Source: Candidatus Woesearchaeota archaeon (GTDB lineage Archaea > Nanobdellota > Nanobdellia > SCGC-AAA011-G17 > CAYUTI01). From it: 64,000 nt of DNA. The notes under the pieces are model-generated. The model saw nothing but the letters and a program-made list of their open reading frames with translations, had not been told where the DNA came from and did not search any database. Within the stretch, counting starts at the first letter, position 1. Each line of letters opens with the position of its first letter. The translations under genes were made by a program, and so were the position numbers. The stretch covers positions 7,026 to 71,025 of the forward strand of contig CAYUTI010000003.1 of NCBI GenBank assembly GCA_964447685.1, given 5' to 3'. Shown one piece after another: positions 10,883 through 16,697 of this stretch.

Positions 10883-11145
10883 TTTCTTATATTTAAAAGT
10901 AGCATAAATGCTTGCAATTGCGACTTAAAAAAGATTGCTAAAAGTATAAACCTTTGTGAATCTGGAGAAGAAAACTATTGTCATGATGATTGTGGAAAAG
11001 AAAATAGTATTATAGATAACAACCAAGAAGAAGGTTTTTTTCAGAAGATTATTGGTTTTTTTAGAAGCTTATTTAGTTAAAATCTTAGATTCTTAAAAAA
11101 AAAAAACATTCTTTTATGACTTCTGAACATTTGGATTTAGAGAAG

Positions 11146-11260
11146 TTTTTGCGTAGCAAAAAATTTGGGAGAGCGAAGTGCAACGAGGTTTCCTGTTAAG
11201 TGAGCCGAGCGAGAGCGCAGCGTGGTCGAGGAGCGAAGCGAAGAAAGTCGAGTTTTGCCC
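11146..11260. repeat. GC-rich mosaic repeat element, copy A: hairpin ttttgcGTAgcaaaa, module Z, then the 13-bp left inverted repeat
   Basis: Shares the hairpin tttttgcgtagcaaaaaa with 11739-11757. gaagtgcaacgagg...ggtcgaggagcgaagcgaagaaagtcgag is shared with 13581-13623. Ends with tcgagttttgccc (11248-11260). Confidence 0.7.
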
Positions 11261-11295
11261 GATACATTAATAAACTTCTAAATAATTTTAATGTT

Positions 11296-11601
11296 ATGGA
11301 CATTAAAGAAATAGAAAAACGAATTATGGATTTTGCTAAGAAAAGAGCATCAGCAAAAAATTTTGATTTGACTCCAGAATTATCTTATATTCATTTAACT
11401 GAAGAATTGGGCGAAGTAGCAAGACAATTATCTAATAAAAAAATTCGCCCAGATTTATTTGATAAAGATAATCTGAAGGAAGAAATTGTTGATGTAATTC
11501 TGGAGGCAATTATTTTGGCGAATATTTGTGAAACAGATTTAGATAAAGAAATTAGCCAAAAGATTGATGCTCTTTTCAAAAGACATAATTTTTCTGAATA
11601 A
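11296..11601 (+). CDS. MazG-like nucleoside triphosphate pyrophosphohydrolase (all-alpha NTP-PPase)
   Basis: LTEELGEVARQ...EEIVDVILEAIILA EExxE/EExxD motifs typical of the MazG/HisE fold, ~101 aa. The track's GTG start at 11200 would read through the GC-rich repeat (Arg-rich artefact). Confidence 0.6.
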   Translation: MDIKEIEKRIMDFAKKRASAKNFDLTPELSYIHLTEELGEVARQLSNKKIRPDLFDKDNLKEEIVDVILEAIILANICETDLDKEISQKIDALFKRHNFSE

Positions 11602-11603
11602 GA

Positions 11604-11964
11604 GGGCAAAACTCGATTGCATTTAACATCGGAATTTAACGAAGTCGCCGAAGGCGATTTGGGGATTTTTCGCAGGAAAATCCCAGATAATCGCTGTTAT
11701 ACGCGTCTGCTAAGACCGAGCCATAGTCTGCAAGACGGTTTTTTGCGTAGCAAAAAAATGGCGAAGAGTTAAATTTAATTTTCATATCAATTCTGCGAAG
11801 CAGACTATATTTTAAGGGAATTCTCTCTCAAGCTCGAAGAGCTATAGATTAAATACATAAAGGGCAATTTCTTTTCTGGCACGAAGTGCTTTTCAATTAA
11901 ATCTTAAAGGGGTCGCCGTCCTTTTTTGCTTCTTTTTTGGAAAAAAGAAGATTATGGGGTCGCC
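11604..11964. repeat. GC-rich mosaic repeat element, copy B (hairpin-rich; modules X, Y, W)
   Basis: Starts with gggcaaaactcga, the reverse complement of 11248-11260. Contains stem-loops gtcgcc-gaa-ggcgat, gggatttt-cgcagg-aaaatccc, ttttgc-gta-gcaaaa, agctc-gaag-agct, gcac-gaa-gtgc, a 22-bp perfect palindrome at 11929-11950, and ggggtcgcc twice. Confidence 0.7.
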
Positions 11965-12027
11965 TAATTTCAAGTTAATTTAGAGTTATAGGTATTTTTA
12001 TATATTTAAAGATTTTAGATTAATATT

Positions 12028-12390
12028 ATGAGAAAGTTATATATTGTTTTGATCATTATTGGAATTTTGATAGTTGGATATACAATAAGCCTTAATTATT
12101 TTAATGCCAAATTCGATAAAGAATGGTTATCTTGTGAAACAGATGATGATTGTATTCTTGTTCCAGATTATCGAATTTGTTCTTGTGGAGATATGGCATT
12201 AAATAAGAATTTTGAAGATGATTATATGTCAATGAGATTTAAAAATAATATATATAATAAGATTTCTCTTGCCAAAATGCAAGTAATTTGTGAGGTTTGT
12301 GCAACTGTTGATCCTATAAATGGAGAAGTTGTTGGTAAATGTGGTAATTCCTTAGGAAGGAATATATGCGTGATTGGTTCTGGTTCTTAA
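12028..12390 (+). CDS. small Cys-rich secreted/membrane-anchored protein
   Basis: N-terminal hydrophobic anchor followed by a Cys-rich domain with 11 Cys (CETDDDC...CSCGD...CEVC). Confidence 0.5.
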   Translation: MRKLYIVLIIIGILIVGYTISLNYFNAKFDKEWLSCETDDDCILVPDYRICSCGDMALNKNFEDDYMSMRFKNNIYNKISLAKMQVICEVCATVDPINGEVVGKCGNSLGRNICVIGSGS

Positions 12391-12461
12391 TTTATGATCA
12401 TATTTCAAGCCAAATTGAAATTATAGAAAGACTTATATAATATCTAATTATTTATTCTGAT

Positions 12462-13100
12462 ATGCATAAAAAAATATTAATTAGTGCCTTAGTATTTATA
12501 ATGATTCTAACTAGTTTAGTTACTGCTAGTTTGTATGCTGAAAAAGTTCCAGATCCAAGCAGATTTACATCTATACAACCAAGATGGTCAGCACAATTAG
12601 AATTATCTGATGGACAAACAATAAAAGTATCTCTAATAACTTTTAAATGGTTGAGTTATCAAAATAAAACAGAAGTAACTCATATGTTCTACCTAAATGA
12701 CGGAATGGATGAATATTTAGCTGAAAAAGGTGCAGAATTTTTTGTTGAAAAATATGAATTTACATGTCAAGAGGGTTATGAAAATTGTACAAAAAAATGT
12801 GATTCTGGTGATGAATCTTGTATAGATGATTGTGTAGAAGAATTTAATTGCGGAAGTGTTTCTACTTGTAGTATATTTGCTCCAGATGACACATGCTCTG
12901 TAGAAAGAATAGAACAGAATTTTGGTAAGCACACCTTATCTTTAAATTTTGATCCTAATTCTGGCAAACCAATAATGGGACCCATAGTTTCTGATAGTGG
13001 AGTAATTATAAAATCTGCTAGCAATTATGATGGAAAACCTATTGAATTAGTAGCAGGACAAAATGGTTTTTTAAGTAAGGGGGTATTCTCATTAGAATGA
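12462..13100 (+). CDS. secreted Cys-rich protein
   Basis: Signal peptide (ILTSLVTASLYA) and multiple Cys pairs (CTKKCDSGDESCIDDCVEEFNC). Confidence 0.5.
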   Translation: MHKKILISALVFIMILTSLVTASLYAEKVPDPSRFTSIQPRWSAQLELSDGQTIKVSLITFKWLSYQNKTEVTHMFYLNDGMDEYLAEKGAEFFVEKYEFTCQEGYENCTKKCDSGDESCIDDCVEEFNCGSVSTCSIFAPDDTCSVERIEQNFGKHTLSLNFDPNSGKPIMGPIVSDSGVIIKSASNYDGKPIELVAGQNGFLSKGVFSLE

Positions 13101-13273
13101 AATTGAGATATCTGATACCTATTTTATTATTAATCTTAGTTTTAATTGTAGGTTGTGTGCAGAAATTAACTCCTCCTGAAGAGGAAGTGCCAGAAGAAAC
13201 ACTTGGAATTTCTACTCAAGAAGAACTATTTGAAGCTGTTAGAACTGCTGTGAATGAACATCTTAAAGAATAA
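13097..13273 (+). CDS. small putative lipoprotein (58 aa)
   Basis: ATG overlaps the upstream TGA (ATGA coupling). MKLRYLIPILLLILVLIVGC has a lipobox-like signal. Absent from the ORF track (<60 aa). Confidence 0.35.
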   Translation: MKLRYLIPILLLILVLIVGCVQKLTPPEEEVPEETLGISTQEELFEAVRTAVNEHLKE

Positions 13274-13632
13274 GCGACCCCAAATAAATCTCAAAACTGA
13301 AAGTTTTGACTATCTGTTGCGGAGCAACCAAGGCGACCCCCTTTTATTTTTTTGGAAATTGCCCTTTTTAGTTTTTAGAGAGAATTCCCGTTTTCTAGTC
13401 GTGAAAATTAAATTTAATTGCGTATAACATCGCGATTAAGAGAAGTCCGAAGCCCTCGAAAAAATTTCCCTCGTGAAACAGAGTTGGAAATTTTTTCAGA
13501 GATGGCGAGGATTTGGGAAAATTCCTGCAAGGGATTTTCCTCTTAATCGCTGTTAAATCCCCCGACGAACGAAGTGAGGAGAGTGCAACGGGGTCGAGGA
13601 GCGAAGCGACGAAGAAGTCACAGAACGGCGCG
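13274..13632. repeat. GC-rich mosaic repeat element, copy C (modules W in reverse orientation, X, Z), ending in the 14-bp inverted-repeat arm
   Basis: gcgacccc/ggcgacccc mirror ggggtcgcc at 11909/11956. Hairpins tcaaaact-gaa-agttttga and gttgc-gga-gcaac. agagagaattccc is the reverse complement of 11816-11829. 13504-13560 aligns with 11653-11705; 13581-13623 aligns with 11175-11252. Confidence 0.7.
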
Positions 13633-13662
13633 TTATTAGGGTGGGAATAAAAGAAAGCTTTT

Positions 13663-14391
13663 TTATCCTAAATCAAATTGTCCCCAATAATTAACTGAAA
13701 AATCTTTATCGGCAGAATCTAATTTATTGTAATCTGAATCTAATAAATCAACCTTTAAAGTATAAGTTCCGTCTTTCTCAAACATACAGCCCATTATTGA
13801 GATTTCTCCAGTTTGTTTCTGACCTGCTGAAATTGTGCTAATTTCATCAAACATAGGGCTTCCAGAACAAACTTCGTTATCGTTGCTATCATAAACATAC
13901 AAATCAAATTTTGGAGAAATCGAAACATCTCCTGTATTAGTAACGGTTACACGAGTGGGATAAAGATTTGCTACTTGAATTTGAACTCTATCAATAGATA
14001 AAGTAGCACTTTTTACTTTTTGTTTTGGAGGTTCTTGGGGCTGTGTTTGAGTATTTGAAGGAGTAGAAGTTTCAGAAGGTTGATTTACATTTTCTGTTGG
14101 TTGGATTTTTACGTCATCATTAAAGATATTTGACGAAGGCAAACTTACAGCATAAATTACAAACAGAATGATGACTAGTGTTATTTTTAATCCTCTTGAT
14201 AATTCAAAATTAAACTTTTCTTTTACAAACTTATTAACAGGTGGAAGTAAAACCAAAGACGCAAGTATAAGAGAACCACCTGCAACTATTCCACCACTAA
14301 AAAGAAAAGTTAATCCGCTTAATCCAAATAACACTCCGAAAATCCAACTTAAAACAAGACCTAATGTGATTTTTTTTGTTTCTTTTGACAT
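13663..14391 (-). CDS. membrane-anchored surface protein (N-terminal TM, Thr/Pro/Gln-rich linker, beta-rich C-terminal domain)
   Basis: 242 aa with TM segments at the N-terminus and a PSETSTPSNTQTQPQEPP linker. Own BRE/TATA at ~14413-14428 on the minus strand. Confidence 0.5.
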   Translation of the reverse strand: MSKETKKITLGLVLSWIFGVLFGLSGLTFLFSGGIVAGGSLILASLVLLPPVNKFVKEKFNFELSRGLKITLVIILFVIYAVSLPSSNIFNDDVKIQPTENVNQPSETSTPSNTQTQPQEPPKQKVKSATLSIDRVQIQVANLYPTRVTVTNTGDVSISPKFDLYVYDSNDNEVCSGSPMFDEISTISAGQKQTGEISIMGCMFEKDGTYTLKVDLLDSDYNKLDSADKDFSVNYWGQFDLG

Positions 14392-14434
14392 TATAAATAA
14401 ATTAGAATAAACTGATATAAAAAGTTTTCTAAAG

Positions 14435-14463
14435 AGGGTGGGAAAGTTAGCGCCGTTCTGTGA
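14435..14463. repeat. 10-bp direct repeat agggtgggaa plus the 14-bp right inverted-repeat arm gcgccgttctgtga
   Basis: Perfect reverse complement of 13618-13631. agggtgggaa is also at 13638-13647. Confidence 0.7.
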
Positions 14464-14565
14464 TTGGATTTAACACCTATTATACGAATAAAAAGTTCGC
14501 TTTTTATCCCTATTTTGGAGTTATTACGAACTTTTTTATACTTTGGAGTTATTTTTAAAATTATG

Positions 14566-15342
14566 GAGAAGGAAAAATATCTTCAAAAACTAAATGAAGA
14601 ACTTAAATTAAGGGGTTATTCTGAAAAAACTAAAAAAAGTTATAGTTATATTATTACCAGATATCTGGAAAAAGAAATAGATCCTAGAGAATTTTTATTA
14701 AAAAATAGTTATAAAAGTAAATCTACAATGCGTAGCAATTATTTTGCGCTAAAGTTTTTTTATGAAAATGTCTTAAAGCAAAAATTTAAAGAAGAGATAC
14801 CTCTAGCAAAAAATGAATCAAAAATACCTGTTGTATTAAGTAAAGAAGAAGTCCAAAAACTCTTTGATGTTACATTAAACTTAAAACATAAATTTGCCTT
14901 AATGCTATTATATTATACAGGGATAAGATTGAATGAGCTCATTAATTTAAAATGGGAAGACCTAGACTTTGATAGAAAGGTTATTCATCTTAAAACAACA
15001 AAAGGAAATCATCAAAGAATTATTTTTTTACATAATAAATTGATACAAATCATAACCTTCTTAGGGTTGGAAAAGAAGGGGTTTATCCTAATTTCAAATA
15101 GAAATAAAAAATATAATCAAAGATCCATACAACAAATTATCAAGAATGCTGTAAAAAAAACAGGTATAAACAAAAAAGTTACTCCTCATAGTTTAAGACA
15201 TTCATTTGCTACCCATCTATTGGATTCTGGAGCAGATATACGACATATTCAAAGATTATTAGGTCATAAGGATTTGAAAACTACTCAGATTTATACCCAT
15301 GTTACCAATAAAGAAATAAATAAACTTTCTGAATTATTGTAG
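14566..15342 (+). CDS. XerC/XerD-like tyrosine recombinase (archaeal XerA-like integrase)
   Basis: R (GIRLNEL), HxxR (HSLRHSFATH) and catalytic Y (TQIYTHV) of the tyrosine recombinase fold. ~259 aa from ATG 14566; the track's TTG start at 14464 is probably non-coding. Confidence 0.85.
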   Translation, partial: EKEKYLQKLNEELKLRGYSEKTKKSYSYIITRYLEKEIDPREFLLKNSYKSKSTMRSNYFALKFFYENVLKQKFKEEIPLAKNESKIPVVLSKEEVQKLFDVTLNLKHKFALMLLYYTGIRLNELINLKWEDLDFDRKVIHLKTTKGNHQRIIFLHNKLIQIITFLGLEKKGFILISNRNKKYNQRSIQQIIKNAVKKTGINKKVTPHSLRHSFATHLLDSGADIRHIQRLLGHKDLKTTQIYTHVTNKEINKLSELL

Positions 15343-15383: not shown

Positions 15384-16697
15384 ATGGCTTATGATGTTAT
15401 TGTCGGTAGAAATGAGTCCGACAGAAAAAGATTTGGTGAAGAGGGAACTGTTCTTTTAGGCAAGCAATATGTAAAGATGGGTCCAGTTACTAGTTTGAGT
15501 AATAATGTTTTTTTGGATGTTAATCGGCCTCATGTTATATTATTGGCTGGTAAAAGGGGTTCTGGAAAATCTTATACTCTTTCAGTTATAGCAGAAGGAA
15601 TTTCTAATTTACCAAAATATATCTCCAAAAATATTTCTGTTTTAATATTTGACACGATGGGTGTTTTCTGGACAATGAAATATAAAAATCTGATGGATGA
15701 AGATCTTTTAATGGAATGGGGAATGAGTCCTGAAGAATTAAATATTTTGTGGTGGGTCCCAAAAGGTTTCTACAAAAAGTATGAAAGAGAAAATTTACCA
15801 GTTGATAAACCCTTTACAATTAAACCTTCTGAATTAAATTCAGGAGATTGGTGTGAAGTTTTTGGTGTTAGTATGTTTAATGAAGAAGGAATTTTGATTG
15901 AAAAAGCAGTTTCAGCTGCTTCAAAAAAAGGGAATTATTCTATTTTAGATGTTGTTAAAGAGATTCAAAAAGATAAAAAAAGTAGTCAGAGGGTTAGAGA
16001 TGGTTTAGAAAATAGATTTTTAGCTGCTCATGGATGGGGGTTGTTTAGTAAGGAAGGAACTGCAATCAAAGACTTATTAGTTCCTGGAAGGACTTCAGTT
16101 CTTGATGTTAGTGTTTACACTCATGTTGCTGGAAGTTGGGCTATTAAAAATTTAGTTATTGGATTAGTTTCTAGAAAATTATTATTAGAAAGGATGATTA
16201 ATAGAAAAGTTGAAGAATTAGCTAATATTAAATATGGTACTACTTATTTTACTCGAGAAGAAGAAAAAGAAACCATGCCTCTAGTATGGTTGATGTTAGA
16301 TGAAGCTCATGAGGCTTTACCTAAAGAGGGAAAAACCCCTGCTACTGATGCTTTAGTTCAATTACTAAGAGAAGGAAGACAACCTGGTGTTACTTTAGTT
16401 TTAGCAACTCAGCAACCAGGAGAGATTCATAGAGATGTTATTACTCAGTCTGATATTGTAATTAGTCATAGGTTAACTGCTAAAAGAGATATTGAAGCTT
16501 TGAATGCAATGATGCAGAGTTATTTACAAAGCGATATGGTAGGGTATTTGAATAATTTACCTAGACTTTCTGGTTCGGGTATTGTTTTAGATGATAATTC
16601 TGAAAGAATTTATCCAATTAGAGTTAGACCAAAATTAAGTTGGCATGGTGGTGCTGCACCTAGTGCTTTAAAAATAAGAAAAGAAATTATGTTTTAA
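15384..16697 (+). CDS. HerA/FtsK/VirB4-superfamily P-loop ATPase (DUF87-like)
   Basis: N-terminal barrel-like segment (DVIVGR...GTVLLGK), Walker A GKRGSGKSYT, Walker B LMLDEAHE, ATQQPGEI sensor region. Confidence 0.7.
   Translation: MAYDVIVGRNESDRKRFGEEGTVLLGKQYVKMGPVTSLSNNVFLDVNRPHVILLAGKRGSGKSYTLSVIAEGISNLPKYISKNISVLIFDTMGVFWTMKYKNLMDEDLLMEWGMSPEELNILWWVPKGFYKKYERENLPVDKPFTIKPSELNSGDWCEVFGVSMFNEEGILIEKAVSAASKKGNYSILDVVKEIQKDKKSSQRVRDGLENRFLAAHGWGLFSKEGTAIKDLLVPGRTSVLDVSVYTHVAGSWAIKNLVIGLVSRKLLLERMINRKVEELANIKYGTTYFTREEEKETMPLVWLMLDEAHEALPKEGKTPATDALVQLLREGRQPGVTLVLATQQPGEIHRDVITQSDIVISHRLTAKRDIEALNAMMQSYLQSDMVGYLNNLPRLSGSGIVLDDNSERIYPIRVRPKLSWHGGAAPSALKIRKEIMF

Follow-up and report, generated by a model that had tools for sequence, protein, structure and literature searches.

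The window analysed here (64,000 nt of a Candidatus Woesearchaeota archaeon; contig CAYUTI010000003.1, positions 7,026 to 71,025) carries at 11131-14474 three tandem units of identical layout, called cassettes 1 to 3 and counted leftwards from the tyrosine recombinase gene beside them. In cassette 1, a 14-mer (TCACAGAACGGCGC) is followed, at a spacing of 818 nt, by its exact reverse complement (GCGCCGTTCTGTGA, 14450-14463). The 14-mer has no further match within the window, exact matches to it were present in 0 of 100 dinucleotide shuffles, and the G+C content of the arms is 64% (window: 31%). The arms enclose a complete minus-strand open reading frame (ORF) of 242 codons. Its product shows by eye three hydrophobic N-terminal segments, a Thr/Pro/Gln-rich linker and a C-terminal domain, and an A/T-rich TATA-like box lies ~25-35 nt upstream of the ATG (by eye). 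A 10-bp direct repeat (AGGGTGGGAA, both copies in the same orientation) lies 6 nt inside the left arm and 5 nt inside the right arm.

A first-pass annotation had described the perfect inverted repeat, the inner direct repeat, the complete gene with its own TATA, the membrane-anchored Thr/Pro-rich product and the adjacent recombinase, and these observations were confirmed, the TATA-like box and the hydrophobic segments by eye. It overlooked a second inverted pair directly outside the 14-bp arms (GTTAAATCC, 13552-13560, with GGATTTAAC, 14466-14474), the repetition of the same architecture at 11.1-13.4 kb and the larger structure that contains the arms.

Layout of the tandem units

On the plus strand each unit reads as follows: AAC, a hairpin of 8-12 bp, GTT plus 6 nt, a GC-rich insert of 32-78 nt, an outer arm (X), the payload, the opposite arm (X'), 2 nt, and finally 6 nt plus AAC. 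Within each unit two 9-mers, one with GTT at its start and the other with AAC at its end, are complementary, as are X and X'; the arm sequences of the three units are unrelated. Three helices (tiers) can thus be named: L, the inner hairpin; R, the pair of 9-mers; and X. The R tier matches the unit's own other end at 9/9, 9/9 and 7/9 positions in cassettes 1, 2 and 3, as against just 6-7/9 for the adjoining AAC 9-mer of the array (by eye). A partner arm for a possible fourth cassette was searched for to the left of 11131 and was not found, and the array is therefore taken to end there in a truncated site. The coordinates are collected in Table 1.

Table 1. Features of the array and of the two recombinase genes in the window. 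L-numbers are fetched loci related to the window recombinase or to the 242-aa protein.
Feature	Position	Strand	Remarks
Cassette 1	13428-14473	-	1046 bp; array reads on minus strand, away from recombinase
Cassette 1, L tier (intact inner hairpin)	13429-13551	+	GCGATTAAGAG (13432-13442) pairs with CTCTTAATCGC (13540-13550)
Cassette 1, R tier, left arm GTTAAATCC	13552-13560	+	9/9 complementary to 14466-14474
Cassette 1, GC-rich insert	13561-13617	+	57 nt, 61% G+C; branch between R and X tiers
Cassette 1, X tier, left arm X = TCACAGAACGGCGC	13618-13631	+	compensatory changes in L103 and L102
Direct repeat AGGGTGGGAA, left copy	13638-13647	+	
Cassette 1, payload gene	13663-14391	-	242 aa, membrane-anchored, Thr/Pro-rich linker; own TATA-like box
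Direct repeat AGGGTGGGAA, right copy	14435-14444	+	function unexplained
Cassette 1, X tier, right arm X' = GCGCCGTTCTGTGA plus TT	14450-14465	+	TT pairs with AG ending the insert
Cassette 1, R tier, right arm GGATTTAAC	14466-14474	+	9/9 with 13552-13560; L102/L103 homology begins here
attI-like site ACCTATTATACGAA...	14475-14520	.	recombinase-proximal half of insertion site; motif kept in relatives
Array-associated tyrosine recombinase, Xer family	14563-15342	+	259 aa; Pfam Phage_integrase (E 5e-44) and SAM_4
Cassette 2	11627-13427	-	1801 bp; three small plus-strand ORFs (12028-12390, 12462-13100, 13097-13273)
Cassette 2, R tier	11696-11704 / 13420-13428		9/9
Cassette 2, X tier	11769-11784 / 13402-13417		16 bp
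Cassette 2, four more nested inverted pairs	11816-28/13377-89, 11860-71/13355-66, 11909-17/13332-40, 11955-63/13274-82		
Cassette 3	11131-11626	-	MazG gene 11296-11601, plus strand
Cassette 3, R tier	11195-11203 / 11619-11627		7/9
Cassette 3, X tier	11248-11260 / 11604-11616		13 bp
Cassette 3, insert	11204-11247		
Cassette 3, distal site	~11131-11194		truncated; array end
Second tyrosine recombinase	38524-39342	-	38% identical to array enzyme; XerA 264 bits (cut-off 220)
X/X', window			TCACAGAACGGCGC / GCGCCGTTCTGTGA; reference
X/X', L103			TCACAAAACGGCGC / GCGCCGTTTTGTGA; one compensatory double change relative to window
X/X', L102			TCACAAAACGACAC / GTGTAGTTTTGTGA; three compensatory double changes and one mismatch relative to window

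The stretch to the left of the 14-bp repeat is GC-rich and contains no convincing ORFs; GC-rich modules are confined in the window to 11.1-13.65 kb. The insert of cassette 1 is 89% identical over 35 nt to 11211-11245 and carries the motif GTGCAACG and GCGAAGC mini-hairpins. Short hairpins closed by C-GAA-G (GCGAAGC, CTGCGAAGCAG, GTCGCCGAAGGCGAT, GCTCGAAGAGC) fill the GC-rich modules of the window (11150-11245, 11640-11900, 13448-13615) and the inserts of L024, L031, L042 and L044, all on the recombinase strand. The oligonucleotide d(GCGAAGC) forms an unusually stable DNA mini-hairpin, and this fits a structure at the DNA rather than the RNA level.

When the two ends of cassette 1 were joined in silico, the reconstructed junction folded as DNA with -60.7 kcal/mol (z = -8.7 against 200 shuffles); the integrated arrangement gave -44.9 kcal/mol. 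Read on the minus strand, away from the recombinase, the junction is ...TAATAGGT G|TTAAAT, which fits the integron core GTTRRRY. The crossover in GGATTTAAC would lie at or just before the final C (AA|C). Very probably, the two 14-bp arms form the outermost helix (tier X) of an imperfect palindrome of ~250 nt and three tiers, which would be the attachment site of a mobile cassette.

Related loci and changes of context

Relatives of the array recombinase were found in one Woesearchaeota and one Pacearchaeota genome (55-63% identity) and on ~45 metagenomic contigs (52-64%); viral contigs contained no relative above 33% identity. As in the window, the recombinase gene adjoins an insertion site at 40 of 45 related loci; in these relatives the site has the form X'-TT/TG-NNNNNNAAC | [A/T][A/C]C[T/A]ATT... 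and is located 60-154 nt upstream of the recombinase start. The conserved part is that to the right of the bar (the attI side); the outer arm on the left is supplied by the last cassette and varies. In most relatives the attI-like site is itself a palindrome with covarying arms (e.g. CTATTAAACGC...GCGTTTAATAG vs CAATTTCCCG...CGGGAAATTG).

A generic search for AAC-stem...stem-GTT hairpins returned 52 hits in this AT-rich DNA, against 38-76 in shuffles, and was replaced by a composite signature. Across 655 kb (the window and the fetched loci), the composite signature gave 36 hits on the recombinase strand, 10 on the opposite strand and 3-6 in shuffles. Twenty-three cassettes were curated, all of them upstream of a related recombinase gene, with a single polarity and constant geometry; at least 20 further cassettes at related metagenomic loci share the layout described above. 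Their X tiers are 9-16 bp long (median 13) and have 23 different sequences, the first base always being T. Pairing of the R tier with the cassette's own end is 9/9 in 12 cassettes and 8/9 in the remaining 11, and the inserts measure 32-78 nt. The dinucleotide following X' and the end of the insert change together (TT with AG 19 times, TG with CG 4 times), which indicates that these positions are paired, a conserved G·T being followed by A-T or C-G.

The L hairpin, which had not been used in detection, is 8-12 bp long in 17 of the 23 sites (median of 4 at random GTT controls), its distance from the preceding AAC being 2-5 nt and that to the following GTT 0-2 nt. These two trinucleotides are invariant in the sites, RYYY and RRRY are mostly not kept, the spans are 68-174 nt, and two extra tiers are present. 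To avoid circularity, junctions were also placed solely by the conserved motif beside the recombinase, with no pairing presupposed: the predicted R and X partner was present upstream of 11 of 26 such junctions, compared with 28 of 9882 other AAC positions, many of those 28 probably being internal cassettes of the same arrays. Inside the X arms, further nested inverted pairs occur in 12 of 22 cassettes.

The cassette of the window was found in two other places. In L103, cassette 1 is 88.6% identical at the nucleotide level from window position 14491 to 13545. It stands there beside a recombinase of 281 aa that is just 43% identical to that of the window and beside a different attI (AAC|AGACTTTATGCGAA), and the flanks also differ, with ScpA and ribosomal genes beyond. 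In L102 it is 88.6% identical from 14488 to 13595 and is flanked by aCPSF1/proteasome genes on one side and rpL1 on the other; within 5 kb there is no recombinase gene. This site is decaying, with a deletion in the insert and a collapsed L hairpin. In both loci the homology with the window begins at G|TTAAAT, and the orientation of the gene relative to the site is identical in the three independent contexts. The X arms have changed on both sides in concert (Table 1). Diverged platforms also have other cassette ends in common: those of L040 and L056 are 94% identical over all 82 nt available and have no blastn match downstream. Site B of the window is 91% identical to a site in L039, the two recombinase genes being 66% identical; payload homology was sought between cassettes with near-identical sites (window cassette 2 against L039, L031 and L032) and the sites alone matched.

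Look-ups of the exact 242-aa protein and recombinase returned just one contig of 3.9 kb (Logan SRR14492172), another assembly of the same sequence with the same arrangement and one orientation of the segment. The 242-aa protein itself has no Pfam or NCBIfam match, and it has many homologues, in some of which the C-terminal half is assigned to PF11611. L104 and L105 carry the ORF alone (76% nucleotide identity), without arms or sites, so the gene family also exists outside cassettes. L106 has a homologue of the 242-aa gene (73% identity) that is not part of a cassette; ~2 kb away lies a gene for a Y1 transposase of the IS200/IS605 type (678-1121).

The GGGTGGG core of AGGGTGGGAA is retained at both positions in the L102 and L103 copies. 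This type of direct repeat is specific to the family of cassette 1; elsewhere its place is occupied by nested inverted pairs. Between the two copies lies exactly the stretch with homology to the genes found outside cassettes, and the repeat might be a trace of the entry of the gene into the cassette.

The curated cassettes hold 0-6 ORFs each and are 140-5856 nt long; of 41 ORFs, 24 are co-oriented with the array and 17 reversed. The 242-aa gene points away from the recombinase, as is usual for integron cassettes. Payload functions are unrelated and accessory: C5 DNA methylase with HindVP endonuclease, N6/N4 methylase, GmrSD, HEPN with nucleotidyltransferase, ArsR, SPFH, a radical SAM enzyme, FtsJ, metallophosphatase, glycosyltransferase, ZIP, TspO, DUF1295, HisG and MazG. 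The ORFs of cassette 2 suggest Cys-rich secreted proteins. For the MazG gene of cassette 3 the mechanical ORF call begins at GTG 11200 and so stretches over the GC-rich insert; the likeliest start is ATG 11296. Single cassettes can contain complete defence modules (L047 5718-7625, L041 6167-7831, L030 6342-7415, L024 172-1429), comprising HindVP-type endonuclease with C5 methylase, GmrSD, N6/N4 methylase beside large unknown proteins, and HEPN with nucleotidyltransferase. The range of sizes is illustrated by L024, where one cassette is by eye 'empty' (payload of 54-55 nt) and still has X, insert and R, and a second spans 4 kb with six ORFs, an X tier of 13-15 bp and an R tier of 9/9. At the start of an 80-kb contig, L004 (108-862) has a 375-bp GC-rich unit without ORFs as a head-to-tail tandem duplicate directly upstream of the Pacearchaeota recombinase, with both junctions right after AAC; this is either a duplicated empty cassette or an effect of assembly.

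The octamer GTGCAACG / GCGCAGCG (GYGCARYG) occurs in 14 of the 23 inserts (e.g. window 13585-13592 and 11215-11222), the host recombinases being just 55-64% identical; it may serve to bind an accessory factor or provide the recombinase with a second contact.

Contig ends are frequent within a few hundred nucleotides (5-500) of the recombinase gene on its upstream side, and in four contigs the distance to the inferred junction is 5-24 nt. This pattern suggests variation in cassette content at the level of the population. Contigs that start just upstream of the recombinase are L025-L028, L037, L043, L045, L046, L048, L056, L061 (a 204-kb contig) and L083.

Reading of the locus and rival explanations

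Anatomy and its statistics, the complementarity of each cassette to its own other end, compensatory changes, changes of context with a breakpoint at AAC and the type of recombinase are matters of observation. On comparative grounds the locus is very probably an integron-like cassette array with a dedicated Xer paralogue, its three tandem cassettes lying upstream of, and divergent from, the recombinase gene. The mechanism would be as follows. A free, presumably circular, cassette would have the order payload, X', R arm ending in AAC, L hairpin, GTT plus R arm, insert, X and payload; in the circle all three tiers (X, R and L) could pair, and the GC-rich insert would protrude as a branch. For cassette 1 the circle junction (14473 joined to 13428) would read ...TTGGATTTAA|CATCGCGATT..., i.e. 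...GGATTTAA|CATCGCG.... A single crossover at the AAC beside the recombinase gene would open the circle between R arm and L hairpin, with the result that the payload would have the L hairpin, an R arm, the insert and X on one side, and X' and the second R arm on the other. A circle split in this way would yield the repeat that 'brackets' the gene. We infer that the array recombinase is the catalyst, that cassettes are excised as circles, and that the substrate is a folded single strand, as for the attC of integrons or the attP of CTX phage.

Several points weigh against this account. The case for excision and integration is a comparative one, and the outer tiers can pair only after excision or over a long range. 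A partner was detectable at just 11 of the 26 motif-placed junctions, which short contigs and strict criteria explain in part. In cassette 3 the R tier is imperfect (7/9) and the distal site truncated, and the model gives no account of the AGGGTGGGAA direct repeat. The domain on which integron integrases depend for folded attC sites is missing from the array recombinase, so its chemistry may differ from that of integrons. Finally, the L103 recombinase exceeds the XerA cut-off (224.6 bits): platform enzymes can thus score above it, and the boundary between XerA and array enzyme is not sharp.

The start of the array recombinase is most likely ATG 14563, 89 nt from the junction at 14474, and not TTG 14464 of the mechanical ORF call, which spans the attI-like site. 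In NCBIfam it scored 206 bits for XerA (NF040815; cut-off 220) and 193 bits, in two stretches, for integron integrase (TIGR02249; cut-off 265); the relatives in L003 and L004 are also below the XerA cut-off (200.6 and 200.8 bits). The protein aligns with XerA 5hxy over its full length (E 1e-38), whereas the alignment with integron integrase IntI4 2a3v is in two pieces, with residues 161-181 of the query opposite IntI 174-239 and ~45 residues of the IntI-specific insertion missing. R122, H209, R212, H235 and Y244 are catalytic-type residues and are invariant in alignment A1. The second tyrosine recombinase of the window (38524-39342) has no GC-rich array beside it and is likely the housekeeping XerA; it passes the XerA cut-off and the array enzyme does not, which gives the latter the appearance of a dedicated paralogue. 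Upstream of the second gene, and apparently co-transcribed with it, is an ORF of 173 aa (39329-39850) with a Cys-rich, HNH-type zinc-finger look (by eye). Directly downstream of the array recombinase, 15384-16697 encodes a HerA/FtsK-like ATPase (DUF87 and HerA_C, weak CedD-like similarity) whose position is not conserved in L003 or L004.

It is unlikely that the array enzyme is instead the housekeeping XerA acting at the chromosomal dif, with the cassettes as small parasitic elements that hijack dimer resolution like integrative mobile elements exploiting Xer (IMEX). The window holds a better XerA candidate elsewhere (264 vs 206 bits), the array is like that of integrons in always adjoining the recombinase gene, the supposed dif receives its outer arm, which varies between loci, from the last cassette, and viral contigs carry no close relatives of the enzyme. 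The idea draws on the family assignment (best match XerA, IntI insertion absent), on the L103 enzyme that passes the XerA cut-off, and on the precedent of CTX phage, which uses a folded hairpin with XerCD. The site of the relatives also reads by eye as arm, 6 bp (CAACTA), arm, like archaeal dif with its two conserved 11-nt inverted arms and 6-nt spacer (PMC8371274).

The first-pass annotation had likened the segment to a recombinase-driven invertible or excisable one under fim-switch or shufflon logic. A discrete unit tied to a tyrosine recombinase is indeed present, and 'excisable' comes near the comparative data; the switch logic is not supported, because the arms differ per cassette, the crossover would lie outside them, the promoter is inside and one orientation was found. 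Inversion of the 0.8-kb segment by the adjacent recombinase through the 14-bp arms, giving phase variation of a surface protein, is accordingly very unlikely, and such inversion is unsupported by the sequences examined. A perfect inverted repeat next to a tyrosine recombinase invites the idea, as do a weak NCBIfam similarity to Fim-type invertases (49-59 bits against cut-offs near 221) and payload ORFs in both orientations (24 vs 17). The arms, however, cannot be a sequence-specific recombinase site, since X differs in all 23 curated cassettes, and the homology breakpoints, with the probable crossover, are at the invariant AAC/GTT 11 nt outside the right arm. Inversion would not turn expression on or off, as the arms enclose the complete gene together with its TATA-like box; the orientation is the same in three independent contexts, and the arms are fully explained as a split palindrome.

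There is very little to be said for a non-autonomous transposon or miniature inverted-repeat transposable element, of which X and R would be the terminal inverted repeats and whose transposase would be encoded elsewhere. The payload is framed by inverted ends without a transposase, and nested inverted pairs are frequent (12 of 22), but no target-site duplication was seen by eye at the cassette ends of the window, and cassettes are invariably inserted at the AAC of a hairpin site, stand in tandem with uniform polarity and adjoin a tyrosine recombinase. The ends differ among cassettes, hence there is no common transposase-binding end, and the GC-rich modules are not scattered.

Pairing of the arms in a transcript (a processing stem, a bulge-helix-bulge or a split RNA), or an RNA gene in the GC-rich stretch, is hardly credible: the region does fold better than shuffles on both strands (z = -2.8 and -3.3) and split tRNAs of Nanoarchaeum have complementary GC-rich leaders, but there is no Rfam match even at E = 10 and no tRNA halves were found, the site keeps one polarity towards the recombinase whichever way the payload gene points, and hybrid sites and changes of context are DNA-level events. 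RNase P, signal recognition particle RNA and a split tRNA half were considered for 13270-13650 and rejected (no Rfam match at gathering score or E = 10, no tRNA; strings resembling CR-I/CR-V form no P4 helix, by eye).

The cassette-array reading can be extended, with confidence only a little better than even, to a previously undescribed gene-capture platform of DPANN archaea (Woesearchaeota/Pacearchaeota). In it, a dedicated Xer paralogue without the IntI domain would insert and excise circular cassettes (0.1-6 kb) at a site adjacent to its own gene, recognising a three-tier folded palindrome (L, R, X and a conserved GC-rich branch). The platform would have either converged independently on the 'integron' plan or persisted as an intermediate form linking Xer/dif to integrons, and would be a main exchange route for defence, transport and surface genes in these reduced, host-attached cells. 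The integrases of integrons are believed to have evolved from Xer recombinases, and the handling of folded attC sites is considered to depend on their extra domain. If the extended reading is true, an Xer-type enzyme without that domain serves a cassette array with a more elaborate palindrome, and integron-style capture arose more than once or an intermediate survives; a concrete pair of substrate and enzyme also becomes available for testing. It would explain how genome-reduced DPANN archaea gain and swap restriction-modification systems, toxin-antitoxin systems, transporters and surface proteins, and may explain the frequent assembly breaks just upstream of the array recombinase gene.

One further repeat was recorded in the window: a 20-nt direct repeat (AAAAGTAGACATAATCATCA; 40006-40025 and 40420-40439, minus strand), 414 nt apart, overlies the ends of two neighbouring small ORFs on the minus strand, 40018-40371 and 40438-40995.

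Comparison with known systems

Archaeal integrons with canonical attC sites and integrases carrying the extra domain were reported in 2022 (Ghaly et al. 2022, PMC9668308). An attC of Nanoarchaeota given there is ACATAAC-AAATC-ATTCAACCGG...CCGGTTAAT-TCATG-GTTATGG, and in Woesearchaeales and Pacearchaeales just attC clusters without an integrase were found (PMC9668308). The IntI-specific additional domain is placed around patch III (Messier & Roy 2001, as quoted in PMC9668308). Searches that demand the IntI domain and canonical attC would miss arrays of the present kind or call them integrase-less attC clusters, and some of the published clusters in Woesearchaeales and Pacearchaeales may be the same system. 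A literature search of incomplete coverage (archaeal integrons, PMC9668308; archaeal recombinase reviews, PMC8371274; recombinase classification, PMC8138268) found no Xer-type cassette arrays or split multi-tier palindromes in DPANN.

With integrons the locus shares a tyrosine recombinase gene that lies beside the insertion site and diverges from cassettes of unrelated content arranged in tandem. The end of each cassette is an imperfect palindrome between ...AAC and GTT..., with a probable crossover at G|TT, and the cassette start is complementary to the far side of the cassette's own site; the L004 duplication and the L102/L103 breakpoints are likewise at AAC/GTT. Cassettes without ORFs, duplicated cassettes, and defence and accessory genes as cargo are also common to both. 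The differences concern enzyme, site and cargo. The present recombinase lacks the IntI-specific insertion and is below the integron-integrase cut-off. An attC has the form R''(RYYYAAC)-L''...L'-R'(GTTRRRY) over 57-141 nt, whereas here RYYY/RRRY is mostly not kept, the R-to-L spacers are 2-5 and 0-2 nt (~5 and 5-6 in canonical attC of Nanoarchaeota), and a GC-rich insert of 32-78 nt, an outer helix X of 9-16 bp and often further nested helices are added. Complementarity extends at least 25 nt beyond the crossover, compared with 6 in integrons, and the attI is itself palindromic in most relatives. Integron cassettes mostly hold single promoterless co-oriented ORFs; those described here hold 0-6 genes in up to 5.9 kb and in either orientation, and cassette 1 at least has its own promoter-like box. 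The present system therefore follows integron logic, differs in two defining properties (the IntI domain and single promoterless co-oriented ORFs) and adds two structural tiers. In integrons recombination uses the folded bottom strand of attC; for the present system, the covariation of helices that can pair only in a folded or excised form gives indirect support to a comparable substrate.

The CTX phage integrates at dif as an attP(+) hairpin with XerCD. An Xer-family enzyme, a long imperfect hairpin that could form the site in single-stranded DNA, and successive integrations leading to tandem arrays are shared with this phage and other IMEX; in contrast, the cassettes are small and lack replication or phage genes, the enzyme is an apparent dedicated paralogue, and the site lies beside the enzyme's own gene.

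The pdif modules of Acinetobacter plasmids, which are bounded by conserved 28-bp XerC/XerD sites in alternating orientation, are similarly discrete accessory-gene modules between inverted Xer-type half-sites in different contexts. Here a full hairpin is found at every junction, in one fixed polarity, with variable outer arms and extra tiers.

Lastly, inverted repeats around a segment beside a tyrosine recombinase, together with a surface protein, are also seen in the fimS element (FimB/FimE) and the R64 shufflon (Rci). There the recombinase acts on the repeats themselves, which are conserved, and flipping the segment reconnects a promoter or the end of a coding region, whereas in the array described here the repeats are unique to each cassette and the gene between them is self-contained.

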